From an uncultured Desulfosporosinus sp. (GTDB taxonomy: Bacteria > Bacillota > Desulfitobacteriia > Desulfitobacteriales > Desulfitobacteriaceae), in the NCBI GenBank assembly GCA_927405585.1, contig CAKMJS010000060.1:14883-78882 (forward strand): DNA of 64,000 bases, written 5' to 3'. The notes under the pieces were generated by a model, which was given only the letters and a program-made list of their open reading frames with translations, made no database searches and had not been told where the DNA came from. Every line of letters starts with the position of its first letter. Within the stretch, counting starts at the first letter, position 1. This document shows, piece after piece, positions 1 to 19,296 of this stretch. The position numbers and the translations under genes were made by a program.

Positions 1-228
1 ATCCTTCTTTTCTGGGGTTTTTTTGTTGTACCCTTTTTTGTCCTGCATTGAATACGAAACCTTTCAACCTTAACCACAGGCCAGATTATAATAAATAACA
101 CTTAATTATAGCATTAAAAACAAAAATATTTATCAATTATGGAGGGTTAATTAAATTTTATGATTATAGTTTCTCAAAACGGTGAAATAACCATAGAAAG
201 GGAAAACTAATTGAAGGACTGTTTATGG

Positions 229-298
229 TTACATTTCATGACGAAAAACAACCGTTTCATGCGGGTGGCAATTTATTTCAAATATCTCAAGCTATAAT
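229..298 (+). promoter_or_regulatory. Direct-repeat operator (LytTR-type) plus -10 box, copy 1
   Basis: CATTTCATG (232-240) and CGTTTCATG (253-261), 21-bp period; TATAAT at 293-298; five more copies in the window. Confidence 0.8.
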
Positions 299-343
299 AT
301 TAATAAATCTAGATGGAAAATAATATTTTAAAAAAGGAGATTT

Positions 344-877
344 ATGATGAAAAAGATTATGACTCTAACTACCACTATCGCATTATTATTTGTTATGACA
401 GTTAGCCTTGCTGGTTGTGGTGCAGAAGAGAGTACAACTAGCCCATCAGTGAGTTTGGTTGATGTCACTACGGATCAAGGCATTAGCATGAAGCTTCCAA
501 GTGATATGACAAAGCAAGATAATGGTGCTTATGTTAACATGAAAACTGGTGATACTGTAAATTGTGGGGTAGGAGAGACTGCTGGAAAACTGCTTTCTGA
601 CTGGAAAGAAGAAAATGTGTCAGCGACCTACGCATCTAAATATGAAGATATTGTAATTAAAAGCTTTGAAAATGGTAAAAGAATCAATGGTAAAGAAGCT
701 CTTCAATCTACGTTGACTTTAAAAACTCCAAAAGGCAATGCTCTTACAACTACATTAGTTATCGTTACTGATGGCACTAATAATAATATTATATCTTTAA
801 GTTATGGAAGTGCTAACACAGACGGCGCACTTGCCCAAAATCTACAAGCTTGTATTGACAGTATAACGATTAAATAA
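344..877 (+). CDS. Lipoprotein of unknown function, paralog A
   Basis: AAGGAG RBS, signal peptide with lipobox SLAGC; shares NGKEA, TLVIVTDG and LQACIDSITI with 3349-3900 and 12230-13177. Confidence 0.85.
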   Translation: MMKKIMTLTTTIALLFVMTVSLAGCGAEESTTSPSVSLVDVTTDQGISMKLPSDMTKQDNGAYVNMKTGDTVNCGVGETAGKLLSDWKEENVSATYASKYEDIVIKSFENGKRINGKEALQSTLTLKTPKGNALTTTLVIVTDGTNNNIISLSYGSANTDGALAQNLQACIDSITIK

Positions 878-923
878 GGCAATAAAGTTTTAATAAAGAC
901 AGATAACATTTCTGTCTTTTTTT

Positions 924-954
924 AAGCCCCGCCCGTATCTGCGGCCGGGGCTTT
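924..954 (+). terminator. Intrinsic terminator-like hairpin
   Basis: AAGCCCCGCC...GGCCGGGGCTTT after the stop; related copy at 3944-3973. Confidence 0.7.
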
Positions 955-1025
955 GCTATAACCAGCTCGGAAAATGTTTATCTGGAGCTTAGAACGCTAT
1001 AAAAATTGAAAACGGAGGAATAAGC

Positions 1026-1574
1026 ATGTCTTATATCATTGCAATTGGAGTCATTATTGGGATACTTGTTTTCTGGGTAATTTCAGTGCAGCGTACCTTT
1101 GTGGTATTGGATGAAAACATTAATAATGCGATGTCACAAATTGGTGTTCAGCTATCCTCACGCTGGGATGCCTTAGCTTCCCTTTTAGATTTAACCAAAG
1201 GGTATGCCGCTCACGAATACAAAACGATGACAGATACCATTAAAGCAAGACGCGCGATCACGAGGGACTCTTCACCTGAGGATGTAAAACAACAGGAGAA
1301 TTTCCTGGTAGAGGCGTTGGGGAAAATTATGGCGGTGGCAGAAAGCTATCCTGATTTAAAGGCGGATCAGACCTACATCAAAACAATGGATTCTGTGAAT
1401 CAATATGAAAACATCGTGCGTACCAGTAGGCTGATTTACAACGATAATGTGACAAAGTTAAATCGTGCCATCCGTATGTTCCCTGCATCGATGATTGCAG
1501 GTATTCTTGGTTTTGCAAAGCGCGCTTATTTAGAGGCAGTGGAGGAAAAAGCCAATATGCCGAGTATGAAGTAA
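1026..1574 (+). CDS. lemA: LemA family protein
   Basis: N-terminal TM, then QLSSRWD, AVAESYPDLKAD, YNDNVTKLNRAIRMFPASMIA, typical of LemA; GGAGGA RBS. Confidence 0.9.
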   Translation: MSYIIAIGVIIGILVFWVISVQRTFVVLDENINNAMSQIGVQLSSRWDALASLLDLTKGYAAHEYKTMTDTIKARRAITRDSSPEDVKQQENFLVEALGKIMAVAESYPDLKADQTYIKTMDSVNQYENIVRTSRLIYNDNVTKLNRAIRMFPASMIAGILGFAKRAYLEAVEEKANMPSMK

Positions 1575-1602
1575 GTATTAACAGGAAAATGGAGGAGTCT
1601 AA

Positions 1603-3291
1603 GTGAAAAAAATTATTACCACTCTATTTTGTGCGTTATTGCTGCTTGCTTTCATGTCCCCAGCCGCCTTGGGAGCTAATAAGGTATCTGACATCAAGGT
1701 TGATGTTGTCATTTATAAGGATGGCTCGGCCTATATCACCCAGACATGGAATTGTAATTTCACGGAGGGCACGGAGGGCTATATTCCCATAGAGAATTTA
1801 GGTGAGATGAGCCTATCGGACCTTCTTGTTTCCGATGCAAGCGGCCCCTATACGCTCATGAAAGATTGGGATGTAAAAGCCAGCTTTAAAGAAAAAGCAG
1901 GAAAATTGGGGTTGGTAAAAACCAATAAGGGCTACGAGCTTTGCTGGGGAATCAGCGAATATGGGGAAAAACGCTATGCCATTGAGTACAAAATCAATCA
2001 GTTTGTTGGTGGGTATACGGATTTCGACGGTTTTAATTTCCAGTTTATCAACCCAGGTATGGGGACCTTGCCTACGGATGTAACGGTAAAAATTACCATG
2101 CAGGATGGAGTAAAGCTGGATGCTAATCACGCTGGAATATGGGCGTTTGGTTTTGACGGGCAAATCAATTTTGAAAACGGTCAAGTAGTAGCTTATACCA
2201 AAAAACCCTTATCCTCGAAGACTGATAGCGTAATTATACTGTTACAGCTCAATAAAGGCTTGATTAACCCCACAAGAGTGGTGGACAAATCCTTTGAAGC
2301 TGTAAAAGCACAGGCATTTAAAGGCAGCGATTACGATGATAAGACAGGTACGGGTGGAAGTTCTTCTGTACTGTCTGAGGAGGAGCTTGGCCCTTATGAT
2401 GTTGTTATAGGATTTGCGATCATGGCTCTTCCTGTTGTTGTAATTATCTATTTTCTGGCACGAAAAGGGAAACGGAAAAAGAAGATACTCGCCCTTTATA
2501 AGAATGCGGATTATTTTCGGGAAACACCTATCGCAGGGAATTTAGAAGCTGCCTTTGTATTAGCAAGGGATTTTGATCAAACAGACGATGACGGGGATCT
2601 TATCGGTTCGGCATTTCTAAAGCTGATTAACGCAGGTTGTCTGGAGCCTATGAGTGAGAAGACGGTTGGTTTGTTTGGCAAAGAAAAAGAGAGCATTTCC
2701 CTAAGACTTGACCATCCACCCCAGTTTACAGGGCTAGCGACAAAGATGCTCTATGATGTATTGGTTTTAGCCAGCAGCAGCGACCAGATTTTACAAGAGC
2801 GTGAGCTGGAAAACTATTGTAAAACAAATCATACAACTATCATGGGCATTATCGAAGCTGCAAAGCAAGACGGTCAAAATACGTTAATGATAATTGATAG
2901 CTATGACCCCTCAAAACAAGCAAAACCTTTAGGGCTTTCACAGCGCGGAGAAAATTTGCTCATAAATATTATGGGCTTTAAGAAATATCTCCTTGAGTTC
3001 TCCCTGATTGGCGAGAGGTCAATTGCCGAAAGTATCATTTGGCAGGATTACCTTACCTTTGCAACACTGTTAGGCATTGCGGATAAGGTGATCGAACAAT
3101 TTGAAAAGGTCTATCCAAATGCGACCCAATATAGCGAAAACGCCCAACATTATTATCTGCTTGCCCATAGATACACCAGAGCATCCTACCATGCGGCACA
3201 AACGGCACGTTCCTCAGGGAGTGGCGGAAGAAGCTCCTTTGGTGGTGGCGGTGGTTTTAGCGGTGGTGGCAGTGGCGGTGGAACACGATAA
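1603..3291 (+). CDS. DUF2207-family membrane protein
   Basis: Signal peptide, extracellular domain, TM helix, GFKKYLLEFS/WQDYL motifs, Gly-rich tail GGGGGFSGGGSGGG; usual LemA partner; GTG start with GGAGG RBS. Confidence 0.8.
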   Translation: MKKIITTLFCALLLLAFMSPAALGANKVSDIKVDVVIYKDGSAYITQTWNCNFTEGTEGYIPIENLGEMSLSDLLVSDASGPYTLMKDWDVKASFKEKAGKLGLVKTNKGYELCWGISEYGEKRYAIEYKINQFVGGYTDFDGFNFQFINPGMGTLPTDVTVKITMQDGVKLDANHAGIWAFGFDGQINFENGQVVAYTKKPLSSKTDSVIILLQLNKGLINPTRVVDKSFEAVKAQAFKGSDYDDKTGTGGSSSVLSEEELGPYDVVIGFAIMALPVVVIIYFLARKGKRKKKILALYKNADYFRETPIAGNLEAAFVLARDFDQTDDDGDLIGSAFLKLINAGCLEPMSEKTVGLFGKEKESISLRLDHPPQFTGLATKMLYDVLVLASSSDQILQERELENYCKTNHTTIMGIIEAAKQDGQNTLMIIDSYDPSKQAKPLGLSQRGENLLINIMGFKKYLLEFSLIGERSIAESIIWQDYLTFATLLGIADKVIEQFEKVYPNATQYSENAQHYYLLAHRYTRASYHAAQTARSSGSGGRSSFGGGGGFSGGGSGGGTR

Positions 3292-3348
3292 AAACTATAG
3301 TTAGGAAAGACACAATAAGAGAAAAATAAAATTGAAAGGGGATTGCGC

Positions 3349-3900
3349 ATGAGAAAGATTCTTGTTTTAACGACCATGATCGCACTATTATTCGTTACGT
3401 CATTTATCCTTGTTGGCTGTGGCGGAGACACGAGTACCCCTAGCGTGCCAGCGAGTACCTCAGGCACATCGTCGAGTTTGGTTGAGGTTACTTCCACTGA
3501 AGGCATTAATCTTAAGATTCCAAGCAAATGGGTAAGGCAAGCTGATGGTATTTATATTGACAAGCAAACGGGTGAAAATGTAGCGTTTGATGTAGTCGAC
3601 GCTGCCGGAAACCAGATTTCCACCTATACAGAGGACACTCTTTTAAACACATACCAAGGCGCCTATAAAAATGTTGCCATTAAAAGCTTTAAAAATGGGT
3701 TACAACTTAACGGTAAAGAAGCGCTTCAAACTCAGATTACTTTAACAACGGCAGAAGGCGATGATCTTACACTGACATTAGTTATCGTTACTGATGGCAC
3801 GAAGAATTATCTTATCAACTTCACTAATGAAAGTGCTAATACAGACGGCTCACTTGCTAAATATCTACAAGCTTGTATTGACAGTATAACGATTAAGTAA
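3349..3900 (+). CDS. Lipoprotein of unknown function, paralog B
   Basis: Lipobox ILVGC; 3' DNA nearly identical to paralog A (CTACAAGCTTGTATTGACAGTATAACGATTAA); ATG 3349 chosen from AAAGGGGA RBS. Confidence 0.85.
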   Translation: MRKILVLTTMIALLFVTSFILVGCGGDTSTPSVPASTSGTSSSLVEVTSTEGINLKIPSKWVRQADGIYIDKQTGENVAFDVVDAAGNQISTYTEDTLLNTYQGAYKNVAIKSFKNGLQLNGKEALQTQITLTTAEGDDLTLTLVIVTDGTKNYLINFTNESANTDGSLAKYLQACIDSITIK

Positions 3901-3943
3901 GGTAGCAAAAAAGACAGATGATTGAGAATATAACTAACTTTTT

Positions 3944-3973
3944 AAGCCCCGCCTTATCGACAGGCGGGGTTTT
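3944..3973 (+). terminator. Intrinsic terminator
   Basis: AAGCCCCGCC-TTATCGACA-GGCGGGGTTTT. Confidence 0.75.
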
Positions 3974-4048
3974 GCTGTACGGTACCATAGATCCAAATAC
4001 AGAGGGACTATAGTGCATGGTCAAGATCCTTTGACAATGCATCTGTTT

Positions 4049-4119
4049 GTTCATTTCATGACGTAAAAGATACATCTCATGCAAGTGATGAAATGTAAGA
4101 AAGCTTTTTAGCTTATACT
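4049..4119 (+). promoter_or_regulatory. Direct-repeat operator plus -10 box, copy 2
   Basis: CATTTCATG 4052-4060, CATCTCATG 4073-4081; TATACT 4114-4119. Confidence 0.75.
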
Positions 4120-4168
4120 AACTATGTCAGTCTTATGACATATAAAAAATATTGGAGGGAAAAACATA

Positions 4169-4612
4169 ATGAAGAGAATTATTCCACTGCTACTTGTCCT
4201 TATCTTAACAACTGGTATGCTTGCTGGGTGCGGCGGAGAAACAACCCCAACGGCAGCACCAGAAAAGCCAGCAGAATCCCAAGAAACAACAAAACCTGCT
4301 GATTCCAAGGATGCATCTGTAATGGAGGAGCTTAGAAAGTTAAAGGAGCTCGAGGGCAAGAATATAAAACTTGTAGAGGTTTATAATGAAGTTGCAACTT
4401 TAGCAATTAAAAATGGTTGGGATAAAGATGAATTAACATTAAAAGAATTAAACGCCGTTAATGCTACCCTACAAACATTTAACTCTATGATCAAAGATCC
4501 ATCGTCCGCTCACGGTGCTGACTTAGACGAAATATTAAGTGCGGCTGATGAATTAACTACAGAATTAAACACGAATATTAGGAAAAGAGTTTCGGTGCCA
4601 TTCGCAAAATAA
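4169..4612 (+). CDS. Small helical lipoprotein, unknown function
   Basis: GGAGGGA RBS, lipobox MLAGC, Pro/Ala/Glu linker. Confidence 0.8.
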   Translation: MKRIIPLLLVLILTTGMLAGCGGETTPTAAPEKPAESQETTKPADSKDASVMEELRKLKELEGKNIKLVEVYNEVATLAIKNGWDKDELTLKELNAVNATLQTFNSMIKDPSSAHGADLDEILSAADELTTELNTNIRKRVSVPFAK

Positions 4613-4652
4613 AGGGATAAGAGAAATCTAATCGCATACCCCTAAGCAAAAG

Positions 4653-4721
4653 AAACTAGACCTAGGAGGAGATAAGCTCTTCTAGGTCTAGTTTCGCGTC
4701 TTGGGGAGAAGTTCGTTAAAC
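4653..4721. repeat. Palindromic intergenic repeat, copy 1 (probably also a bidirectional terminator)
   Basis: AAACTAGACCTAG...CTAGGTCTAGTTT followed by TCTTGGGGAGAAGTTCGTTA; second copy at 12010-12085. Confidence 0.75.
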
Positions 4722-5828
4722 GCTTACTTCGCGAATGTCAGGAATTTGATCGTCTACATAAATTTTTCTCCGCTTCCTTCGTTGGTAAGATACTTCGAGC
4801 AGAAGGCCGATCATGAAAGGAATGATGGTGAGCAAAATCATCCCTAGGACCAGTTCCCACAACTCATCCGGTGGGGGAGCATCGCCATAAAAGACGAGCA
4901 GCCAGAGCAGCCCGGTAGAAATAAGCAGGAGCCTGCTGATCCAGGCTTTCCACTTTTCCTTCTTTGGAACCAGATACTTTCTGGCGTCGCTGTCGGTGAG
5001 AATATCTTCAGAACGGTAATTTGTGAACGGAATCGCGTGAGGCTGAGCGTTGCTGGTAATCGCAGGAGAAACAAGTATCTGAACGGATAAGCCACCCGCC
5101 GTCGCAGGGCTAGAATTCGTGACCACGGGTGTAGCTGAAGTCTGTGCTACCTGATCTCCGGGAATCAACATCTGTCTGCCCCGGTTCAAAACCTTGTAAC
5201 CGGTGTAGTAAATTATGCCCACCAGGGGGATAAAGAGCAGGGTAAGCATGCTGTCAGCGGAAACAAGGGTGTTAAAGAGCGCGTGGGTCAGGTAAGCAAG
5301 AAGAAGACCACGGAAGATAATGCGCTTTGGTTTCAGTCGATACATAAACCTGGCCAGGCCAGCGTGATAACCGATGATTATCCCACAAAAGGCATGAAGA
5401 GGAATAGATGTGAACGCCCGCATCACACCGGTGGAAAAACCATGATCTAATACATAGAAGATGTTTTCAAGAAGAGCAAAGCCAAGCGCTCCGGCACCAT
5501 AGTAGACGATGCCATCAATAATTTCATTGTAAAAAGCCTTTTTCCTGATAAAGAGATAGATGAAGAAGAACTTAGCAAGTTCTTCCGAAGGGGCAACCAG
5601 AAGAAATGACTCGTAAAAGCGGCCATCAAGGCCGGGTAGGGTAAAAATGGGCACGGATTCAAAAGCCAGCTCGATTATGATAGCCGGAATAATGCTCATA
5701 GCACCTATGACCATCGCCAGTATGACATTTTTCAGCGATTCCGGTTCATTTCTGTCCATCCAGTAGATAAGAACCATTAAAGTAGCCGGTGGCGCGATGG
5801 CCAGGAGAAGTAGCAATATTGTGCTCAT
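4716..5828 (-). CDS. prsW: PrsW-family intramembrane metalloprotease with C-terminal extension
   Basis: APSEELAKF, GALGFALLENIFY, RAFTSIPLHAFCG and HALFN motifs; extra ~130 aa with two more hydrophobic segments. Confidence 0.85.
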   Translation of the reverse strand: MSTILLLLLAIAPPATLMVLIYWMDRNEPESLKNVILAMVIGAMSIIPAIIIELAFESVPIFTLPGLDGRFYESFLLVAPSEELAKFFFIYLFIRKKAFYNEIIDGIVYYGAGALGFALLENIFYVLDHGFSTGVMRAFTSIPLHAFCGIIIGYHAGLARFMYRLKPKRIIFRGLLLAYLTHALFNTLVSADSMLTLLFIPLVGIIYYTGYKVLNRGRQMLIPGDQVAQTSATPVVTNSSPATAGGLSVQILVSPAITSNAQPHAIPFTNYRSEDILTDSDARKYLVPKKEKWKAWISRLLLISTGLLWLLVFYGDAPPPDELWELVLGMILLTIIPFMIGLLLEVSYQRRKRRKIYVDDQIPDIREVSV

Positions 5829-5872
5829 AGTTATTACTCCTGTTTCAATAAGTGTAGGCTTTTTTAGTATCC

Positions 5873-5952
5873 ATTATACCAGAATCGTTACAAAAGAAAC
5901 GTCTAAATTGACCGACCTGCACGACATGTTGTTTTTACGTCATGAAACGTAA
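5873..5952 (-). promoter_or_regulatory. Direct-repeat operator plus -10 box, copy 3 (minus strand, upstream of prsW)
   Basis: Minus strand TTACGTTTCATGACGTAAAAACAACATGTCGTGC (5952-5919); TATAAT at 5878-5873, about one helical turn farther than in other copies. Confidence 0.7.
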
Positions 5953-6180
5953 CTTTAGAGGGGTGAATAGATGCTAGACTATATATTGTGGTAGAAAAGC
6001 AATGCAGCTACCATGCATATAATGGGCTGTGCTTCTTTATCGCTGAAAGCGGGGTTTTCTAGAGCACGAGTTATTCTGTGAGGACTGCAGAAAGGCGCTT
6101 GTCTGTGCTTCCTGCTGTTAATTGTGGAACTAAATAAGAAAGCAGGTCTTAATTTATGAAAAAGACAATCGGGGAGAAAA

Positions 6181-8124
6181 ATGAAAAGAAATAGAATCAT
6201 GGTCTTCTTTACGGTACTTGTTGTAACAAATTTTATGCTATTTAACACCTGCGCAATTGCAGCCACCCCCTCGATAAATTCAACACAAACACCGGAGGTC
6301 ACAAGGATTTGGGGAGCAGATAGGTATGAAACAGCCAAAGCGATTGCCGAAAAATATAGCAGCGATACCGTAGAAAATATTGTCCTTGTTCCTGGAAATA
6401 GTTTTGCGAATGCTCTTCCGGCAGCAGTTTTAGCGTATCAAAAAAAAGCAGCCTTACTTTTAGTAGGGCCCAGTGCCAATCAAACGAAAGAAGCCTTTGA
6501 TTTCATTGCCAAGCACTTAAATGCTGCCGGCATGGTCTACCTTGTGGGGGACAGGGATCAAATAGAAATAGATTTTGAGAGTAAATTAGCGGATATCGGG
6601 TGTGCAAACATTACGAGAATCAGCGGTGAAAACAAGATTGAAACAGACCATTTGATTGCCAAAGAATTGAATGTGCAGATAGGGACACCAATTGTTATTG
6701 CTGCTAGTGAAAATTTTCCCGATCCCCTATCGATTTCCAGCATTGCTGCATCCAATGGCTGGCCGATACTTTTTAGCGAGAACAATCGACTACCGGATTC
6801 AATTAAAGACTATATAAGTTCAATTAAACCTTCCCAATTCTATATTACCGGGGGAACAGCGGCAGTATCTGCTGAAGTGGAAGCGGAGTTAAAGCAGATT
6901 CAACCGGATGCGGAATTCATACGATTCGCCGGCAAAGACAGATATGATACCTCGCGTCAGATCGCCAATTATTTTGCTCCGGGTGCCTCCAATATTTATA
7001 TAGCATCCGGTCTCCAATTTCCAGATGCTATAACGGGAGGCATGCTCGCCGCCCAAACCAAAGCCCCTGTATTATTGATCAACCCTAGTGCACAGGTTCA
7101 AGAACTTTCCAAGTTTCGAACCGTATCAACGATTACCTGCTTCGGTGGGACGCAGGCTTTATCGGCTGAATTAGTAAGAGGATTGAGGCAGAAAAGTAGT
7201 GTAGTCAATCCTTATGTAGAATATAGCTATGAGCAAATGCGCAAGGACGCGGCAACAATTCAAGAACTTTATCCTGAGGCTGTACAATTAGAAACTATAG
7301 GCCAATCTGTAGAAAGTAGAGAGCTGTTACTTCTTAAACTTGGCAAGGGAGAAAAGAAAGTCTTTCTGAATGGCAGTATGCATGCCAGGGAATATATGAC
7401 GACCTCTTTCCTGATGAAAATGATTGATGAATACGCCTATGCCTATACCTATGATGAAGCATTCGATAGTTATAATGTCAAAACGCTTTTGGACAATGTA
7501 ACACTCTACATCGTGCCCATGGTCAATCCGGACGGGGTCAATTTAGTGCAAAACGGGTTATCAGCCGTAAATAATCCTCAAAAAGTTAAGCAAATGCGTC
7601 TATTCTATCCACAATTGGGTTACGCCAGTTGGAAGGCGAATATCAACGGTGTAGACCTCAATCGAAATTTTCCGGTCGGTTGGGATGTAAAATCAAGCGA
7701 TACCCAGGTTCCAAGTTCACAAAACTATAAAGGAACCCAACCCATGACCGAACCTGAAGTAATGGCTGTCATGGATCTAGTTAAAAATAATAGCTTTATG
7801 ATTGTCGTGTCCTATCATACCCAAGGCGAATATATTTTTTGGTCGGATAAAAACTGCGGTTCTTTTAATGATCTATTAGAACCGATGACAAACAGACTTG
7901 TAAACCTCACCGGATATGAAAAAGGAGGGAAAATACATACCTCAGGAAATTGGGGTGCTGGGATTGCGGATTGGACCCGGTCACTCAAAATTCCGACCTT
8001 TACCCTTGAGCTCTGTCCATATCGCAGCGATATTCCTTATCCTGATTCAGGGTTTGATGATGTTTGGGAAAGGGTAAAGGATACAGGATTGTTTTTTGCA
8101 CAAGAGGCAATGCCAAGACCATGA
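6181..8124 (+). CDS. Cell wall-binding repeat 2 (CWB2) protein with C-terminal M14 zinc carboxypeptidase domain
   Basis: RIWGADRYETA and RFAGKDRYDTS CWB2 repeats; HARE zinc motif, NPDG, NINGVDLNRNF, SYHTQG, TFTLEL. Confidence 0.9.
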   Translation: MKRNRIMVFFTVLVVTNFMLFNTCAIAATPSINSTQTPEVTRIWGADRYETAKAIAEKYSSDTVENIVLVPGNSFANALPAAVLAYQKKAALLLVGPSANQTKEAFDFIAKHLNAAGMVYLVGDRDQIEIDFESKLADIGCANITRISGENKIETDHLIAKELNVQIGTPIVIAASENFPDPLSISSIAASNGWPILFSENNRLPDSIKDYISSIKPSQFYITGGTAAVSAEVEAELKQIQPDAEFIRFAGKDRYDTSRQIANYFAPGASNIYIASGLQFPDAITGGMLAAQTKAPVLLINPSAQVQELSKFRTVSTITCFGGTQALSAELVRGLRQKSSVVNPYVEYSYEQMRKDAATIQELYPEAVQLETIGQSVESRELLLLKLGKGEKKVFLNGSMHAREYMTTSFLMKMIDEYAYAYTYDEAFDSYNVKTLLDNVTLYIVPMVNPDGVNLVQNGLSAVNNPQKVKQMRLFYPQLGYASWKANINGVDLNRNFPVGWDVKSSDTQVPSSQNYKGTQPMTEPEVMAVMDLVKNNSFMIVVSYHTQGEYIFWSDKNCGSFNDLLEPMTNRLVNLTGYEKGGKIHTSGNWGAGIADWTRSLKIPTFTLELCPYRSDIPYPDSGFDDVWERVKDTGLFFAQEAMPRP

Positions 8125-8155
8125 CTTTCCTCCGTGCTTACCGAGAAATAATTGG

Positions 8156-8194
8156 GAATTACTTGACGGCGGCATTATTACACCGGAGGAATTT
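8156..8194 (+). pseudogene. Scar of a SHOCT-domain gene 3' end
   Basis: Translates ELLDGGIITPEEF (SHOCT-like), has no start, and runs straight into the operator box. Confidence 0.45.
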
Positions 8195-8262
8195 ACATCT
8201 CATGACGAAAAACAACCACTTCATGCAGACGGCAACTGATTTCCAATATTCTATGTTATGGT
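8193..8262 (+). promoter_or_regulatory. Direct-repeat operator plus extended -10, copy 4
   Basis: CATCTCATG 8196-8204, CACTTCATG 8217-8225; TG-T-TATGGT at 8254-8262. Confidence 0.75.
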
Positions 8263-8333
8263 AACGAAGAAGTAATATCCGAGAAAAGACTCTGTAATTT
8301 AGATGCGAAAAAAAACGAAAAGGAGAATAATCA

Positions 8334-11300
8334 ATGCATATTAAAAGAAGAAAGAACTTTGTGTGGTCACTTGCCATCATCTTTTTGCTTACCCAGGCCT
8401 TCATAAGCCCAGTCTTTTCCCAATCTACAGCCCAAGCGTCGGAGACAGGCGCGAAGACAATGTCAGCTTCAGGGACAACCACAGACAGGCTTGCCGGAGC
8501 AGACAGGTATCAAACAGCTGTAGCCGTATCCCAGAAAGGCTGGGAGACCTCAGACTACGCAGTGCTAGCCAGAGGAGATCACTTCGCGGATGCCCTTTGT
8601 GCCGGACCGTTAGCCCAGAAATACGGTGGGCCAATCCTTCTGACAGCATCGAACCAACTAAATGCCGATACGCTCACAGAATTACAAAGACTAGGGGTCA
8701 AACACCTCTTCATCGCGGGTGGATTAGGTGCCGTATCCCAAAGTGTGGAAGACGCTTTGAAAACAGGCACATCAGCGACCATAGAACGGATCTATGGTGA
8801 TGATCGATATGAAACCTCGGTCAAAATCGCGCAAAAGATCGGAAACACCGGTAAAGTAGTCCTCGCCACAGGCAGTGACTTCCCCGATGCGCTTTCGATC
8901 TCGGGTATCGCAGCCAAGCTTGGGATGCCGATCTTATTGACAGCGAAAGACAGTTTATCTACTAGTATTAGCGACTATTTTCACAACAACACAGTCAGAC
9001 AGACCTATGTGGTCGGCGGGATAGGTGTAATCAGCGAAAACGTAGCTAACAGTGTACCAGGTCCAACCAGACTGGCAGGCATTGACAGATACGCTACTAA
9101 CGTAGCCATCCTGCAGAACTTTGCCAGCGAACTTAACTTTGATACCCTCTATGTTGCCATAGGCACAAACTTCGCAGATGCGCTAACGGGAGCAGTCTTA
9201 GCAGCCAAATCATCCTCTCCCTTGGTATTGACAGCGCAGACACTCCCCGCAGGGACAGCAAACCACCTGCAAACCAAACTGAAACTTTCTAGTAAAGTCT
9301 TAGGTCTGGGAGGCAGTAGTGTTGTTCCCTCTGCTGTTCTCACAGGTTTAGTGATTGCCAAAGAACAGATCCCTGTTGAAGAGAAATACAGCACAGCCGG
9401 AACCTATGGACCGGAAACAGGAAGCAAGACCATCCAGGGCAGTGTCATCATCAGTGCTCCTGATGTCACCCTGAAGAATACCATCATTGAAGGAGACCTT
9501 CTCTTAGGCGGAAGTATCGGAGACGGTAACGTCACTTTGAGAGATGTCACCGTCAAAGGGAAAACCATCATCAATGGCGGCGGACCCAACAGCATCATCA
9601 TGTACAACTTTAACGGTCAGTCCGTCGTCGTTGACGTACCGGATGGAGGGAATGTGCGGCTTGTCGCTCAAGGGACTACCAGTCTTGCCGGAGTCAGCAT
9701 GGAATCTGATGGAATACTTGAGGCTGTAGGCGCTAGCGGAAGCGGCTTTGTGGATGTAGTAATTCCTGCAGGTGTTCAGGTGACCTTCATTGGAGCATTC
9801 GCGCAGGTAAACGTTGAATCGAGCGGAGCAAGTATCAATCTACCCAGTGGGTCGAGCATTACCACACTGAATGCCAATGCAGCATCGAATATAACCGGTC
9901 AAGGTCAGATTACCACAGCTAATATTAATGCCGGTGGTGTGACTATAGAACGGACGCCTACGAACACGACCACGGTAGCCAGCGGTCTGACAGCGATGGT
10001 CGGTGGGGTAGTGGTGAGTGGGACGAATAATGCACCGCCAGGAGGCGGAGGAGGCGGTGGCGGACCCGTAGTGGTAACGGCTATTACCGTGACAGGAAAT
10101 GCCGTAGTTGGGGAGATATTAACTGCGACACCGACACCGGCTGGGGCGACGGGAACGTATCAGTGGACCATCTCCGATACCGCAGGTGGAACATATATAA
10201 ATATTGCAGGCGCTACTTCTAGCACGTATACACCAATCGCGGATAATGCAGGGAAGTTTGTTAAAGCAACAATAACAGGTACAGGCAGTTACACCGGAAC
10301 ACAAACAAGTACGGAGAAAGGGCCAATAATAGGAGCTACAATCAACATCGCAGCAATCCCAGGAGTAACAGCTCCAGTCAATGGAGCAATGCCGGTAACG
10401 ACAATCACAGCAACAGATCAATACACGGGAACGGTAGCTTGGTCACCAACACACGCAACATTTGCAGGCGGCACCGTGTATACAGCAACGATCACATTAA
10501 CAGCAAAAACAGGATACACCTTAACAGGTGTAGCTGAAAACTTCTTCACAGTAGCGGGAGCAACAACGAATACAAATTTTGCTAATTCAGGTGTTGTCAC
10601 AGCCGTGTTCCCTGCAACCGCAGCTACAGTAATCAACATTGCAGCAATCCCAGGAGTAACAGCGCCAGTCAATGGAGCAACGCCGGTAACGACAACCACA
10701 GCAACAGAATACACGGGAACGGTAGCTTGGTCACCAGCACACGCAACATTTGCAGTCAGCACCGTGTATACAGCAACGATCACATTAACAGCAAAAGCAG
10801 GATACACCTTAACGGGTGTAGCTGAAAACTTCTTCACAGTAGCGGGAGCAACAACGAATACAAATCCTGCTAATTCAGGCGTTGTCACAGCCGTGTTCCC
10901 GGCAACCGCACTAAACATTGGTGACACTTACGGTGGCGGCATAGTCGCTTATATCCTCCAATCTGACGACCCTGGGTATGATGCTAATGAACAGCATGGC
11001 CTAATTGCTACTACAGCAGACCAAAGCACAGGGATACAATGGGCTATACTAGATGAACAAATAGGAGGAACAAGTCCCGCATACGGTACTGGTTCAGCAA
11101 ACACAGACAAAATCATTGCACAGAATGGGGCAGGTACCGAATATGCAGCAGGGTTAGCACGTGCATACAACGGAGGTGGCAAGTCAGATTGGTACCTACC
11201 ATCCAAAGATGAACTTAGTAAAATTCTTGCAAGCAAAAATATTATCGGAGGGTTCTATGAAGGCCTTGATCAAGCACACTATTGGAATTCTACCGAGAAC

Positions 11301-11408
11301 GATTACCAAAGCGCGTACAGGCATACTGTCTGGGCCGCCAACTGGGGCCAATTTGACGTGGACGGTAAGTGGATATTAAACTACGTCAGGGCTGTTAGGA
11401 CTTTTTAA
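8334..11408 (+). CDS. CWB2 surface protein with beta-rich repeats and C-terminal DUF1566 (Lcl/CLec-like) domain
   Basis: Three CWB2 repeats (RLAGADRYQTA, RIYGDDRYETS, RLAGIDRYATN); Gly hinge; two 97-aa repeats; tail DWYLPSKDEL...YWNSTE...YVRAVRTF. Confidence 0.88.
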   Translation: MHIKRRKNFVWSLAIIFLLTQAFISPVFSQSTAQASETGAKTMSASGTTTDRLAGADRYQTAVAVSQKGWETSDYAVLARGDHFADALCAGPLAQKYGGPILLTASNQLNADTLTELQRLGVKHLFIAGGLGAVSQSVEDALKTGTSATIERIYGDDRYETSVKIAQKIGNTGKVVLATGSDFPDALSISGIAAKLGMPILLTAKDSLSTSISDYFHNNTVRQTYVVGGIGVISENVANSVPGPTRLAGIDRYATNVAILQNFASELNFDTLYVAIGTNFADALTGAVLAAKSSSPLVLTAQTLPAGTANHLQTKLKLSSKVLGLGGSSVVPSAVLTGLVIAKEQIPVEEKYSTAGTYGPETGSKTIQGSVIISAPDVTLKNTIIEGDLLLGGSIGDGNVTLRDVTVKGKTIINGGGPNSIIMYNFNGQSVVVDVPDGGNVRLVAQGTTSLAGVSMESDGILEAVGASGSGFVDVVIPAGVQVTFIGAFAQVNVESSGASINLPSGSSITTLNANAASNITGQGQITTANINAGGVTIERTPTNTTTVASGLTAMVGGVVVSGTNNAPPGGGGGGGGPVVVTAITVTGNAVVGEILTATPTPAGATGTYQWTISDTAGGTYINIAGATSSTYTPIADNAGKFVKATITGTGSYTGTQTSTEKGPIIGATINIAAIPGVTAPVNGAMPVTTITATDQYTGTVAWSPTHATFAGGTVYTATITLTAKTGYTLTGVAENFFTVAGATTNTNFANSGVVTAVFPATAATVINIAAIPGVTAPVNGATPVTTTTATEYTGTVAWSPAHATFAVSTVYTATITLTAKAGYTLTGVAENFFTVAGATTNTNPANSGVVTAVFPATALNIGDTYGGGIVAYILQSDDPGYDANEQHGLIATTADQSTGIQWAILDEQIGGTSPAYGTGSANTDKIIAQNGAGTEYAAGLARAYNGGGKSDWYLPSKDELSKILASKNIIGGFYEGLDQAHYWNSTENDYQSAYRHTVWAANWGQFDVDGKWILNYVRAVRTF
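10341..10910 (+). repeat. Intragenic tandem duplication, 291-bp period
   Basis: ATCAACAT.GCAGCAATCCCAGGAGTAACAGC at 10341 and 10632; units nearly identical, second lacks one codon. Confidence 0.9.
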
Positions 11409-11523
11409 CACAAAGTTAATCCAAGCTAAAGTCCCCCCCGGGGTCCCAACCATGTTCCTCCACGGGGTCGTACCCTCACACAATTTAGACACAATTCAGT
11501 AGGACCAGCAAACAGGTCTAATG

Positions 11524-11560
11524 GAGAGCCGATTCGCCTTAGGGCAGTCGGCTCTCTTTT
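11524..11560 (+). terminator. Intrinsic terminator
   Basis: GAGAGCCGA...TCGGCTCTC followed by TTTTT. Confidence 0.8.
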
Positions 11561-11766
11561 TAGTTTCCGTGGCTGAAAGTCTCTGCAAAACTTCGTCGTA
11601 CTGACTGCAAAAGTCTGCAGGAGGACTTAGGAAAGGCAAATAATCTGATGGTCAGAGCCCAAATAAAAGGTGCTGAGGGCGCTACGCCAAAGATAATTTT
11701 TATGGTAAGGTAAGGGGGAGATAAATTTGACATATCCCGCACTATCTCACAAGTCAAATTGAAAAA

Positions 11767-12012
11767 TTGTATATTCATGGATACAAAGCAGTATATGGTG
11801 GAGACGATATTCAGAGCATGAAGTTCTTTGAAATTCCTTTGGTCAGTAATGTGTCTGCCATAGAATCAGTTAAGTTAGGAGCAGACACCTTTGTAAAAAT
11901 TAGTAAGAATACGCTACCCGGCGCTCAAGGGATAGTAACTTCAAGAGTTAAATTTAGGGGCAATAAAGGGTCTGACCTCCTCATAATTCGACAAAGTTCG
12001 TCGAAGCTATAA
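11767..12012 (+). pseudogene. Short hypothetical ORF, possibly the tail of a decayed gene
   Basis: 81-aa ORF with weak TTG start and no clear RBS; coding-like interrupted frame upstream (11562-11800); stop overlaps the repeat at 12010. Confidence 0.3.
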
Positions 12013-12085
12013 CGAAAACTAGACCTCGGAGAGAGAAATCTCTTCAAGGTCTAGTTTTTGAATCTTGGGGGAAAGTTCGTTAAGC
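12010..12085. repeat. Palindromic intergenic repeat, copy 2
   Basis: TAACGAA-AACTAGACCT...AGGTCTAGTT-TTTGAATCTTGGGGGAAAG-TTCGTTA. Confidence 0.75.
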
Positions 12086-12120
12086 ACGTACTAAAACAAT
12101 GATAAAAGCATACCTGGAAA

Positions 12121-12190
12121 TTACATTCCATGACGAAAAACTACCGTTTCATGCAGTCGGCGATTTATTGCAAGTATTTCTTGCTATCAT
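12121..12190 (+). promoter_or_regulatory. Direct-repeat operator plus extended -10, copy 5
   Basis: CATTCCATG 12124-12132, CGTTTCATG 12145-12153; TG-C-TATCAT at 12182-12190. Confidence 0.8.
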
Positions 12191-12229
12191 ATAAATAAAG
12201 CCAGAATAAATTTATATTAAGGGGGATTT

Positions 12230-13177
12230 ATGACGAAAAAGATAATTAAACTAACGATGACTTTCGCCCTATTACTATTGGTCATAATTGTTGGCCTTGC
12301 TAGTTGTGGTGGAGAGACTAGTACCACTGCCGAAGCAGAGAGTTTGGTTGAGGTCACCACAGAACAAGGCATTGGCCTTAAACTTCCAAGCGTTTTGGCA
12401 AAGCAAGATAATGGCGCTTATGTAAACATGGAAACAGGTGATTCCGCAGCCTTTGGCGTAACAGAAATTGCTGGAGCCCCACTTTCGAGCGCGACAGAGA
12501 AAGATGTTTTAGCACTATATCAAAGTAAATATGATGATGTTGTAGTAACAAGCTTTGAAAATGGCAAGAAAATCAACGGTAAGGAAGCGGTTGTATCTCA
12601 GCAAAATTTAACTACTCCCAAAGGCAATGCGGTTACAATGACATTAGTTATGGTTACTGATGGCAAGAAGAATTATATTGTAACGTTTACTTATGGAAAA
12701 GATAAGACAGACGGTGCACTTTATAAAAATCTACAAGCTTGTATCGACAGCATAACGATTGCTAGTACTCCTAGCAGTACCTCTGTTAAAGACGATTTTT
12801 CAGAATATCTCTATACTAGTTTCGGTAAAGTTTTTGAACCTGAAAATAGTGATATCCTGAAAATTTATACAGAGGCAGCCTTAGCTAAGGATGGCAAAAT
12901 TTTAGCAAAAGCGTTATCAGAAACACTTCCAGTAAAGAATAATGCCTTGCTTGAAAAACTTAAAGCTTATACGCCAAAAACTACGGAAGTTCAAGAATTG
13001 CATAACACTCTTATTCAGGCTGTCGAAGTAAGAAGAGATGCTTATGCTCAAGTACATAAAGTTCTGACGCAACCTGCGACTGAATCAGAAGTAGATGCTG
13101 CCTTTGCTGTGTTAGATGAATCTGATGCCAAGTTTGAAGAATTTTTAACAAAGGCTGAGTCCATGAAGAAAGATTAA
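12230..13177 (+). CDS. Lipoprotein paralog C with extra C-terminal helical domain
   Basis: Lipobox GLASC; first ~180 aa align with paralog A (KQDNGAYVNMETGD, FENGKKINGKEA, LQACIDSITI); ~135-aa extension. Confidence 0.85.
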   Translation: MTKKIIKLTMTFALLLLVIIVGLASCGGETSTTAEAESLVEVTTEQGIGLKLPSVLAKQDNGAYVNMETGDSAAFGVTEIAGAPLSSATEKDVLALYQSKYDDVVVTSFENGKKINGKEAVVSQQNLTTPKGNAVTMTLVMVTDGKKNYIVTFTYGKDKTDGALYKNLQACIDSITIASTPSSTSVKDDFSEYLYTSFGKVFEPENSDILKIYTEAALAKDGKILAKALSETLPVKNNALLEKLKAYTPKTTEVQELHNTLIQAVEVRRDAYAQVHKVLTQPATESEVDAAFAVLDESDAKFEEFLTKAESMKKD

Positions 13178-13179
13178 AA

Positions 13180-13250
13180 TTACATTTCATTACCAAAAAG
13201 CAACATTTCATGTAGGAGTAGAATTTTAAATCAGTTTATAAGATTATAAT
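13180..13250 (+). promoter_or_regulatory. Direct-repeat operator plus -10 box, copy 6
   Basis: CATTTCATT 13183-13191, CATTTCATG 13204-13212; TATAAT 13245-13250; begins 3 bp after the upstream stop. Confidence 0.75.
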
Positions 13251-13360
13251 GATCTTATAGGAAAGAAGAAAGATCCAGAATTAGGAATATATTACGTTGC
13301 CTGTACTGAGAGGTAGATGCAACGTACATGTTAACTGATTGAGAAAGTAGGTTGAAATCT

Positions 13361-14551
13361 ATGAAAAAAATAATAGTCACGTTATTATTGCTTTCATTGC
13401 TTACTGTTGGATGCTCTGAGAATAGTAGTCTAAAGACCAATAATCAAGTCGTCGAACCCACACAAAACCAAATAAAAAATGAACAAGAAACTCAGAACCA
13501 AGGCACTAATAGTATTGAAAGCAAAGCAGATATTCAAAACGAAACCAAATCTAGAGTTGTAATTAAAACCTATTATGAAGAGCCGACTTCGTTAAAAGAT
13601 AAAAATACAATAATACTCAAAGGATTAAGCAAGGGCGAATTTATTGAAGTTGTTGTAGAAGGAGAGATAAAGGATTTTAAGCATGTGGAATTAAAATGGG
13701 ATGAGAAGCAAAATACATTAATAGAGAAAAGAATTATTAATAAGTTTGATACATTAATCAATAAAACGATTGTCATACAAACATATCTACCGGACGGCAT
13801 ACCATCAGAAAAAATTCAATGGCAGACGATCTCTGGAAAACCTTATGAATTTATTATTGCGGAAAATAATTTAGGAAAAGGCCAAAAGGAAGAGATTTTC
13901 ACGGAAGAACTACCAAGTGTTAGTGCGACCGCTTCAACAAGCGTTCAGAACTCTGCTGATGATAATAATCCACCTATTCCTACGAAGGGTAAGGATTTAA
14001 AGGGCTTTATTCCGGAGGGGTGGAAAATCAAGAGTTCTGTTGAAGGCGATTTGAACAAAGATTCTTTGCCCGATATTGCAGCTGTGATCGAGAAAGAAGA
14101 TGATACGGATAGTTCGTTTCCTCGAATACTTTTTGTGCTGGTTCAAGACAAGGATAAATCGTACACACTAACTGTTAAGACAGCTACGGCAATTATGAAA
14201 GCAAATGAAGGTGGAGTCTGGGGAGATCCTTTTGAAACCATTTCCGTTGATAGGGGATCAATTCTACTAAGATTTTATGGCGGAAGTAATTGGAGATGGT
14301 ATAAACACTATAGATTTAAATTTCAAGAGGATGGTTGGTACCTAATTGGAGCTACGCTTGGGTCATTTTTTACAGGGACAACTACAGAAGAAAACGCTGA
14401 TGAGGAAGACTATAACTTGCTCACTGGAGATTACGTAATTAAAAAAGCCGATGAAAAAGGCAATGTTAATACGACAAAAGACAATAGGGGAGTAAGGAAG
14501 CTTCTTAATCTAAAAGAATTTAAGGTGGATTCGGAAGAGAACCAGTTTTAA
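13361..14551 (+). CDS. Two-domain lipoprotein, unknown function
   Basis: Lipobox LTVGC; C-terminal domain GDLNKDSLPD...WGDPF...GGSNWRW; ATG 13361 preferred over TTG 13352. Confidence 0.8.
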   Translation: MKKIIVTLLLLSLLTVGCSENSSLKTNNQVVEPTQNQIKNEQETQNQGTNSIESKADIQNETKSRVVIKTYYEEPTSLKDKNTIILKGLSKGEFIEVVVEGEIKDFKHVELKWDEKQNTLIEKRIINKFDTLINKTIVIQTYLPDGIPSEKIQWQTISGKPYEFIIAENNLGKGQKEEIFTEELPSVSATASTSVQNSADDNNPPIPTKGKDLKGFIPEGWKIKSSVEGDLNKDSLPDIAAVIEKEDDTDSSFPRILFVLVQDKDKSYTLTVKTATAIMKANEGGVWGDPFETISVDRGSILLRFYGGSNWRWYKHYRFKFQEDGWYLIGATLGSFFTGTTTEENADEEDYNLLTGDYVIKKADEKGNVNTTKDNRGVRKLLNLKEFKVDSEENQF

Positions 14552-14563
14552 CCGGAGAAAACA

Positions 14564-15835
14564 CTATAAAATAATGCTAGCCTGAAAAACTCTGTCTTCG
14601 GCTGAGAAGGTATACACACCGGCGTATTTTTGTACTACCGCTGCAATGCTTTTCGTGCCAAGACCATGATTTTTATCTGTGCTTACCGGCATGTCGTCAA
14701 CAAAGATGATCGAGCCATCGAAGCTGTTGGTGATTTGTATGTAGAGCTTATTATTTTTGATATTGGAGACAATTTTTAAGGTTCTGTCATTTGCGCTGTT
14801 AATAACTATGCAAGCATTAATGGCATTTTCAATGGCATTGGAAAAAATAACGCAAAGATCCATATCGGATACGGCGTTATTCTCAGGGAGATTGATCTCA
14901 GTTTCAACAGTAATTTGTTCATTCTTGGCCTTCGCAATATAAGAAGAAAGCACCAAATTAACCGTATAGTTGCTGCAATATTTTTCAACCGCAGCACCCT
15001 CAATGGTTTTTTCTACCTCTGTAATATATTTTTGCGCCGCTTCCTGGTTGTTGTCTAATAGATAGGAATTGATCAGATTCAAGTGATGACGCATATCGTG
15101 GCGATGCAGCATTGTTTTTTCTTGTGATTCTTCCAATGCTTCAAAATGAATCTGTGCTGCGGCTACTTGAGTCATTAATAAATTCTGTTCGTTTTGCAGG
15201 GTGAGCTGTTCTCTGGTTTGTTTGAAAAATCGTAGAATCAAAATATAAGCAGAAAGAGTCAAAATAAAGATCAGCACAGTGTTCCTTAAAATATTTCCAA
15301 TGATCACATTGTCCAAATTATACATACTAGCAGAATAAAGTAGCACAGAGTATGAAATCGGGATCATGCAAAATTCTAGCCAGCCTTTATCGGAGTTGCG
15401 CATCATGTAAAGAAATGGCGGACGGATATACTTGAAAATAAGAAACCATGCGGGCAGATACAGGATATAACATACAATGATCACGATTTCCCTGCCGGAG
15501 CCGAGGAAATATGAAATAATAAGTCCTACCAAAGAGAACGACGTGGTAATAGCGACGAGTGTCCAATGAACAAAAAATACCTTGATCGGTTTGAACTTTG
15601 ATATAAACACAAATCCTAAAAATACCGGAAGGTGGACAAGAAGGGGATATAGTTTCATAAAAGTTGTATACCCGAAATTGAGCAAAACAAAACCATCACA
15701 AATTAGTACGACAGTTGCATAAAGCCCCAACAGATAGCGGTTCTTCTTGTGTTTAATTTCGCAATCTAAGAGCATATACATCACACTGATTGCGAAAATA
15801 AGGCTAAGAAGAGATCTTATATAATCCATTATCAA
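14564..15835 (-). CDS. AgrC/VirS-like membrane sensor histidine kinase (GHKL domain)
   Basis: About 6 TM helices, H-box HRHDMRHHL, IFSNAIENAINAC, HGLGTKSI; AGGAGGT RBS; no adjacent response regulator. Confidence 0.85.
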   Translation of the reverse strand: MIMDYIRSLLSLIFAISVMYMLLDCEIKHKKNRYLLGLYATVVLICDGFVLLNFGYTTFMKLYPLLVHLPVFLGFVFISKFKPIKVFFVHWTLVAITTSFSLVGLIISYFLGSGREIVIIVCYILYLPAWFLIFKYIRPPFLYMMRNSDKGWLEFCMIPISYSVLLYSASMYNLDNVIIGNILRNTVLIFILTLSAYILILRFFKQTREQLTLQNEQNLLMTQVAAAQIHFEALEESQEKTMLHRHDMRHHLNLINSYLLDNNQEAAQKYITEVEKTIEGAAVEKYCSNYTVNLVLSSYIAKAKNEQITVETEINLPENNAVSDMDLCVIFSNAIENAINACIVINSANDRTLKIVSNIKNNKLYIQITNSFDGSIIFVDDMPVSTDKNHGLGTKSIAAVVQKYAGVYTFSAEDRVFQASIIL

Positions 15836-16018
15836 GGGTTTTTACCTCCTAATTTACTTCCCATCTAAGTTCAATTGAGTATTTGAAGTCATTATACCAG
15901 ATTCATTATAAGAAAATAACAAAAAAATTACATTTTACAAGAAAAAGCGACATCTCATATTAAATATAGTTCATTAAGCCTTAAAAAAATACCATAAATT
16001 AACAATAAAATAGTTGTG

Positions 16019-16050
16019 AAATCCAGTTGTATAGTATAACTGGATTTTTT
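16019..16050 (+). terminator. Orphan terminator-like hairpin
   Basis: AAATCCAGTT-N9-AACTGGATTT plus TTT, with no gene ending here. Confidence 0.55.
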
Positions 16051-16091
16051 GATTGAAGCGATTCTAGAACTATAAGCTAAAGTCTCAAAAA

Positions 16092-16144
16092 TGGTATAAT
16101 ATAGGAAAAAAAGCACGTGTCATCTCGTAATATAATGAGTGACA
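16092..16144 (+). promoter_or_regulatory. Extended -10 promoter and downstream inverted repeat
   Basis: TG-G-TATAAT 16092-16100; TGTCA(T)CTC-N10-GAGTGACA 16118-16144. Confidence 0.45.
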
Positions 16145-16249
16145 TTGCCAGTTTAAATTATTTTCTTGGGGGGAGGTTAATATAAATGCTATTAAAAAGG
16201 GAGTGTAGTTAGCTGTGAAAAAGCAGGTAAGGAGGGATATACAGGTATT

Positions 16250-19269: not shown

Positions 19270-19296
19270 TGATAGCCCCGCCATTTCCAACAATGA

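Follow-up and report, generated by a model that had tools for sequence, protein, structure and literature searches.

Six copies of a 34-bp direct-repeat box precede genes at one end of a 64,000-nucleotide stretch of DNA from an uncultured Desulfosporosinus sp. (contig CAKMJS010000060.1, positions 14,883 to 78,882 of the forward strand; hereafter the window), and they raise the question of which regulator reads them and what it controls. An earlier note, made from the sequence alone, had taken the boxes for binding sites of a LytTR-type activator that co-induces envelope genes. Our analysis points in the same direction. The boxes are probably operators of one LytTR regulator, which would partner an AgrC-like sensor histidine kinase encoded at 14564-15835 on the minus strand and activate genes for envelope proteins. 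A regulator of LytTR type finds strong support in the linkage of the box in other genomes to genes for proteins with Response_reg and LytTR domains and to orthologues of the kinase, in the conserved spacing between box and -10 hexamer, and in the equality of the half-site with that of YpdB from Escherichia coli.

All six 34-mers were found exactly as the earlier note quoted them, at its positions and on its strands. A position weight matrix (PWM) built from the six boxes, a check that the note had proposed, scores 46-55 bits at the boxes themselves and no more than -0.7 bits anywhere else on the two strands of the 64 kb, so that the window holds exactly six copies, all within its first 13.3 kb. 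When up to three mismatches are allowed, box 1 matches three sites in the window, whereas 100 dinucleotide-preserving shuffles gave no match. In each box, (A/C)C(A/G)TTTCATG occurs twice as a direct repeat, with an AAAA(A) tract in the spacer, and the claimed geometry of 9-mers around a 12-bp A-rich spacer holds throughout, with a 21-bp period in all six. Every box is intergenic and lies on the strand of the next gene. LytTR sites in general consist of two 9-11-nt repeats with an 11-13-nt spacer and have no common consensus (PMC4847170). The half-sites of all six window boxes, and of 54 sites collected by a scan of other genomes, are 21 bp apart and conform to this spacing rule. A search of positions 1-16400 against Rfam gave no match.

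The scan used the exact pattern CRTYYCATKACNNAAAANNNNCNNNTCRTG, which fits all six boxes, on one genome per species across 185,579 species. The 54 sites that it returned are spread over 46 loci and come almost entirely from Clostridia and related Bacillota; from the information content of the pattern we calculate that no more than a handful of matches would arise by chance. Several genomes hold multiple copies (Natronincola peptidivorans, HGW-Firmicutes-12, Gracilibacter BRH_c7a, Dethiobacter and Clostridium sediminicola). Three Desulfosporosinus genomes are among the matches, five loci are listed as metagenome-assembled genomes (MAGs) of Clostridia bacterium, and at two Desulfosporosinus loci the flanks of the box are almost identical to those of window boxes 2 and 6, which marks the source of the window as Desulfosporosinus-like. 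Two contigs labelled Pirellulales (L022) and Calditrichales (L011) have a box and gene content near-identical to those of the Bacillota contigs L027 and L006, respectively, and are probably mis-binned in their MAGs. The sequencing runs that hold the window sequence are subsurface and groundwater metagenomes.

The arrangement of box and promoter is also conserved. In the window, a -10-like hexamer follows the end of the box after 30 nt (boxes 1, 4 and 5), 31 nt (boxes 2 and 6) or 40 nt (box 3, ahead of prsW), the last corresponding to one additional helical turn; these values agree with the 31-32 bp, and 41 bp for the prsW copy, reported before. The absence of a consensus -35 was likewise borne out, as a sigma-70 consensus scan yields no -35/-10 pair at the -10 hexamers of the six boxes. 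Among 54 Firmicute-type sites, those of the window included, 33 have a strict -10 (TAnnnT, 5/6 or more matching) that begins 29-32 nt past the box, against a control of about 0.7 sites per offset. A G is present at -14 in 57% of these sites and no -35 is conserved. When the -10 hexamer is placed at -12 to -7, the boxes span about -76 to -43 relative to the predicted starts, with half-site centres near -69.5 and -48.5. Transcription is predicted to begin 6-8 nt past the -10 hexamers, at about 305, 4126, 5866 (minus strand), 8269, 12197 and 13257. Conservation also extends to several positions on which the search pattern placed no constraint (T2, 26-28, C34, A35 and G36). The box thus occupies a fixed position ahead of -35-less promoters, as an activator-dependent LytTR operator does, and phased direct repeats upstream of such promoters are textbook LytTR behaviour.

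Orthologues of the window kinase (48-81% identity) are encoded at 26 of the 46 loci, and a protein of 240-258 amino acids with receiver and LytTR domains is encoded within 8 kb of the box at 17. A kinase orthologue and/or a LytTR regulator is present at 31 loci, usually 40-900 bp from the box. The regulators were first screened with AgrA and YehT queries, which served for screening only, and the matches were then confirmed with Pfam: all ten neighbouring regulators that were checked combine Response_reg and LytTR. Their public annotation is generic ('LytR/AlgR family response regulator'). Typically, regulator and kinase form an operon that diverges from the box-driven gene, and in at least 12 loci the distance between the box and the start codon of the divergent regulator is 40-250 bp. 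The kinase orthologue immediately precedes the regulator gene, in the same orientation and with the box beside them, in Syntrophomonas (L037) and D. meridiei (L052). One kinase paralogue, at locus L008, is itself box-driven. At locus L050 (P0004), a box drives lemA directly and the regulator gene diverges from it; the lemA-DUF2207 genes share 89% nucleotide identity with those of the window, and this contig, apparently from the same run-accession series, may be a second locus of the window genome or may belong to a sister strain. Among the box-linked regulators there are three related subgroups, with 35-48% identity between subgroups, and box position 3 tracks the subgroup (TAC in A and B, GTC in C, TGC in outliers). 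Such covariation is what direct recognition predicts.

The kinase in the window is of the HPK10 type, with 6-7 transmembrane (TM) helices, the H-box HRHDMRHHL, conserved H, N and G boxes and a HATPase_c_5 domain (E 4e-18); it gave no PDB match by sequence and no NCBIfam match. Kinases of the AgrC/ComD class pair with LytTR regulators, and this one is the probable sensor of the box system. Its gene lies between those of LipoC and an LCM methyltransferase and has its own TGgTATAAT promoter, with no box upstream and no adjacent response regulator. No agrBD-like genes adjoin it, but kinases of the VirS type take their peptide signals from genes at other sites, and a peptide locus may likewise lie elsewhere in this genome. 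Quorum sensing, which the earlier note had offered along with envelope stress, is therefore unsupported rather than refuted, and the word 'envelope' describes the output of the regulon rather than an established input.

With regard to targets, the four lipoproteins, PrsW and the CWB2-DUF1566 surface protein named before are confirmed (Table 1), whereas the kinase, the LemA-DUF2207 operon and an intervening terminator had been missed. The proposed envelope output is well reflected in other genomes: of the 60 genes that come first after a box, in the window and elsewhere, 50 encode a protein with a lipobox, signal peptide or TM segment. LemA-DUF2207, LipoA, LipoB, LipoC, PrsW and CWB2 proteins recur beside the boxes, and the targets in other genera include exported proteins with Cu_amine_oxidN1, CBM6, Big_2 and RCC1 repeats. 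The one DUF2207 protein studied so far, SMU.243 of Streptococcus mutans, affects stress tolerance and biofilm formation (PMC10457818).

Table 1. Boxes, promoters and genes of the cluster, in order along the window
Feature	Position	Strand	Description
Box 1	229-262	+	Half-sites ACATTTCATG / CCGTTTCATG, 21-bp register
Box 1 promoter	293-298	+	-10 TATAAT; predicted transcription start about 305
LipoA	344-877	+	Lipoprotein, lipobox LAGC, no Pfam family; behind box 1
LemA	1026-1574	+	
DUF2207 membrane protein	1603-3291	+	
LipoA2	3343-3900	+	LipoA paralogue
Box 2	4049-4082	+	-10 TATACT at 4114-4119
LipoB	4169-4612	+	147-amino-acid lipoprotein, no Pfam family; behind box 2
PrsW	4716-5828	-	PrsW-family intramembrane protease, C-terminal 2-TM extension; behind box 3
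Box 3 (prsW)	5919-5952	-	Extended -10 TGgTATAAT, hexamer at 5878-5873
CWB2-M14 carboxypeptidase	6181-8124	+	3x CWB2 and M14 carboxypeptidase; no box of its own in the window
Box 4	8193-8226	+	-10 TATGGT at 8257-8262, TG ahead
Surface protein	8334-11408	+	Signal peptide, 3x CWB2, C-terminal Lcl_C (former DUF1566); behind box 4
Box 5	12121-12154	+	-10 TATCAT at 12185-12190, TG ahead
LipoA3	12230-13177	+	LipoA-family lipoprotein, helical C-terminal extension; behind box 5
Box 6	13180-13213	+	-10 TATAAT at 13245-13250
LipoC	13352-14551	+	399-amino-acid lipoprotein, no Pfam family; behind box 6
Sensor histidine kinase	14564-15835	-	AgrC-like (HPK10-type), 423 amino acids; directly past LipoC

In the mechanism that we infer, the kinase would sense a membrane or extracellular cue and phosphorylate the LytTR regulator, two molecules of which would occupy the (A/C)C(A/G)TTTCATG half-sites, which are in phase and have their centres near -69.5 and -48.5, likely aided by DNA bending at the A-tract spacer. 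The bound regulator would then recruit sigma-A RNA polymerase to the -35-less promoters, which have a -10 hexamer and in some cases an extended TG. The predicted output is co-induction of three lipoproteins of PsbP/DcrB fold, two further lipoproteins, PrsW and the CWB2 surface protein; ancestrally it may also have included LemA-DUF2207 and the CWB2-M14 carboxypeptidase.

The sign of this control deserves separate consideration, since a LytTR regulator might bind the boxes and still act chiefly as a repressor or as a dual regulator. Such a role could be read from an inverted half-site that overlaps the -35 region of LipoB-type promoters (the window, L012, L013 and L041), and from the short distance between the box and the divergent regulator gene noted above, which would allow control of its own operon. 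The position of the boxes at about -76 to -43 of -35-less promoters is, however, the classic activator position, and known LytTR systems of the same geometry activate transcription. We therefore favour activation and consider predominant repression or dual control quite unlikely.

The inverted half-site itself, GATGAAATGT, lies at 4087-4096, 4 nt past box 2, and is shared by the LipoB-type promoters of L012, L013, L041 and L048, the last of which has the same flanking sequence; it could bind a third protomer or have a repressive role. A further element, GGCAATTTATTTCA, occurs at 267-280 and again after boxes 4 and 5 and at loci L016, L037, L050 and L052, placed 5-19 nt past the box in promoters of LipoA/LemA type. 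We also considered whether the core promoter overlaps a third half-site in the same register, but the averaged profile does not support this and does not account for the GGCAATTTATTTCA element in that way.

Several observations weigh against assigning the boxes to a LytTR partner of the window kinase. No LytTR gene was found in the 64-kb window by Pfam among the 50 larger open reading frames (ORFs), which include all long ORFs of 344-15835, and the kinase is a solitary gene. Because the scan pattern came from the six window boxes, the collected sites are biased towards them. No RNA runs holding the sequence of the window or of Petroclostridium (L004) were found. The half-site is shared with another LytTR group, represented by YpdB and by a box ahead of cstA in Paraclostridium that has no AgrC-like kinase nearby, so that the window boxes could be read by another LytTR protein. 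Finally, because three of the six downstream genes are paralogous, the similarity of boxes 1, 4 and 5 possibly comes in part from promoter duplication.

Taken to its limit, the last point would mean that the boxes were conserved merely through copying of promoters together with paralogous lipoprotein genes, with no common regulator. LipoA, LipoA2 and LipoA3 are indeed paralogues (53-62% identity), and boxes 1, 4 and 5 have the downstream element GGCAATTTATT in common. The boxes nevertheless precede unrelated genes (those of PrsW, LipoB, LipoC, CWB2, Cu_amine_oxidN1, Big_2 and RCC1 proteins) with otherwise unrelated flanks, and box and spacing are kept across distant genera in which the flanks have diverged. 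Promoter copying as the whole explanation is accordingly very improbable.

The shared half-site leads to a more specific alternative, in which the boxes are read by a regulator of the LytS/LytT-YpdB/BtsR type that responds to pyruvate or carbon starvation, and the AgrC-like kinase is linked to them by coincidence. The experimentally defined YpdB site in the yhjX promoter of E. coli is GGCATTTCAT-N11-GGCATTTCATGC (PMC4847170), compared with ACATTTCATG-N11-CCGTTTCATGC in the box. Both are direct repeats with the same core CATTTCAT(G) and 21-bp register, while two 5' bases differ. The box-linked regulators match the BtsR model best, yet reach 72-76 bits against a cutoff of 246; AgrA is weaker still, and the closest solved structure containing a LytTR domain is ComE (4cbv, E 3e-8). 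On the other hand, AgrC-like kinase orthologues accompany the box at more than half of the loci and no LytS-type kinase was seen there, the targets are envelope proteins and not transporters, and the flanks of the box covary with the subgroup of the adjacent regulator. We consider this alternative unlikely, although it retains some weight. The known systems also differ in composition: YpdA and BtsS are LytS-type kinases, whereas the kinase here is AgrC-like and polytopic, with HATPase_c_5 and without LytS domains, and YpdAB and BtsSR each control one transporter gene as compared to six envelope-protein promoters here. By regulator equivalog and LytS-type kinase, the box system is not a member of YpdAB/BtsSR.

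The half-site was observed in two other settings. In three Paraclostridium species (L003:3282-3311, L036:3050-3079 and L038:3296-3325), a variant box ATGCATTTCATTACATAAAAAATGCATTTCATGA is located ~120 nt upstream of a gene for a CstA-family transporter with no AgrC-like kinase nearby; it looks like a LytTR regulon of the BtsSR/YpdAB type (pyruvate or carbon starvation) that shares the half-site. Contigs of Chitinophagales (L021:513-545; L029:153-220 and 4599-4665) hold at least three tandem 21-bp units of GGCATTTCATGACAAAAAACT, so that the same half-site also forms an array in a different phylum, the Bacteroidota.

For the preferred assignment to an AgrC-like kinase and a LytTR regulator, the nearest functional analogues are VirSR of Clostridium perfringens and RgaSR of C. 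difficile, which likewise combine these two classes of protein; the window kinase is likened to VirS and RgaS by class. These systems also have small regulons of about 5-6 promoters with phased repeats ~21 bp apart near -50/-70, the critical bases of RgaR/VirR-type repeats being at -51 and -72, 21 bp apart (PMC10602386). Their kinase and regulator genes can be unlinked ('orphans'), with no peptide genes beside the kinase (PMC10602386). They differ in the repeat, which is of the VirR-box type as opposed to CATTTCATG here, and in their targets, which are toxins, agrBD and a small RNA rather than lipoproteins, PrsW, LemA-DUF2207 and CWB2 proteins. The Agr, ComDE, Pln and Blp systems share with the present one an HPK10-type kinase, a LytTR regulator and 9-bp repeats with a 12-bp spacer at activator-dependent promoters, but their targets are bacteriocins, competence genes or an RNAIII-like RNA. 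Of an Agr-type locus, the window has the HPK10/AgrC-like kinase, but no pheromone precursor and no AgrB-like or AgrD-like gene was found beside it, where 15836-16249 holds only ORFs of chance size. With regard to autoinduction, no box precedes the kinase gene in the window; in relatives the box adjoins the divergent regulator gene, and the kinase paralogue at L008 is box-driven.

A different class of regulator was considered because an OmpR-type two-component system, with a DUF4342 gene, is encoded close by (17142-19848; the pair itself at 17142-19293, 3 kb from the kinase), and because PrsW, which belongs to the sigma-W pathway in Bacillus subtilis, is among the targets. The element could then be an operator of that OmpR-type system or a sigma-W-like promoter of the extracytoplasmic function (ECF) family. 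However, no orthologue of the OmpR-type pair is found in any of the 46 motif loci, the ground on which it was rejected as the regulator of the boxes, and OmpR-family sites repeat every 10-11 bp. Nor does a 21-bp-phased repeat with a sigma-A -10 at a fixed distance resemble the bipartite ECF promoter of AAC/CGT type. The Pfam survey of the 50 larger window ORFs returned no sigma-factor family, with no search aimed at ECF sigma genes. We give this explanation next to no weight.

The content of the regulon is not identical between the window and its relatives. In relatives, the lemA-DUF2207 operon is a core box-driven operon with lemA directly behind the box. In the window, LipoA stands between box 1 and lemA, and its stop codon is followed by tandem hairpins at 895-953 (dG -31.4 kcal/mol, z -6.3), the first of which (895-923) has a U-run. 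These hairpins probably end the box-1 transcript ahead of lemA. Since the lemA-DUF2207 operon lies behind this terminator, its control by the box is uncertain here, and lemA may have become uncoupled from the box in this genome. A comparable case is the CWB2-M14 carboxypeptidase, whose gene forms a single box-driven operon with that of LipoB in Desulfosporosinus UBA8487 (L012) and has a box at loci L024, L035 and L048. In the window, prsW and box 3 are inserted between the LipoB and CWB2-M14 carboxypeptidase genes and part the latter from box 2, which makes its regulon membership doubtful. The window cluster is thus rearranged relative to its relatives in having a solitary kinase, LipoA and a terminator before lemA, and the prsW/box-3 insertion.

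The AlphaFold model of LipoA has a predicted local distance difference test score (pLDDT) above 90 over residues 40-177 and a fold of the PsbP/DcrB/LpqN type. An exact-protein look-up of LipoA gave no match, and the sole match for LemA was a Logan contig of 3 kb with the same sequence as the window.

No published description of this regulon was found, which accords with the remark in the earlier note that it was not recognised as described. A literature search linking LytTR with LemA, DUF2207 or PrsW gave nothing relevant, and no relevant context was found for the motif CATTTCATGAC. The system is apparently a previously undescribed LytTR two-component regulon of conventional mechanism; the mechanism being a textbook one, the advance is another member of the class and no new principle. 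The window provides an operator consensus, predicted transcription starts and a predicted regulon for a two-component system widespread among Clostridia and related anaerobes. It also brings together targets that are for the most part of unknown function (LemA, DUF2207, PsbP/DcrB-fold lipoproteins, PrsW and CWB2 proteins) in what would be one co-regulated envelope programme. The recurrence of an E. coli LytTR half-site in distant Gram-positive systems with another class of kinase bears on the evolution of LytTR specificity.

A broader proposal, for and against which we see about equal chances, is that these loci represent an uncharacterised Bacillota-wide system of an intramembrane-type AgrC-like kinase and a BtsR-like LytTR regulator. 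Its core CATTTCAT, shared with YpdB, would then reflect one DNA specificity deeply conserved across phyla, despite the lack of a common consensus ascribed to LytTR sites, and its ancestral output would be LemA-DUF2207 together with exported envelope proteins. If the proposal is true, it would offer a first approach, through regulation, to the function of the widespread LemA and DUF2207 families.

Some further features of the window were noted. The gap ahead of box 5 (11409-12120) is unusually long at 712 bp, compared with ~100 bp for the orthologous gap in Gracilibacter BRH_c7a (L024), and holds a small ORF (~11818-12012; 64 amino acids when read from the first ATG), behind which there is a terminator-like hairpin (~12018-12060). 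A 16-codon ORF, MIIVSQNGEITIEREN, at 160-210 just before box 1 has GGAGGG 13 nt upstream and is probably due to chance. Two PAS-GGDEF proteins, one of them with HD-GYP, are encoded at 20791-23253 and 36853-38532 and have no linkage to the box in other genomes. A corrinoid-dependent methyltransferase cluster at 27727-33970 comprises a B12-binding protein, two URO-D/MtaA-like enzymes, a RACo activase and a CdhD-like protein, as might be expected of a methyl-group-utilising anaerobe.

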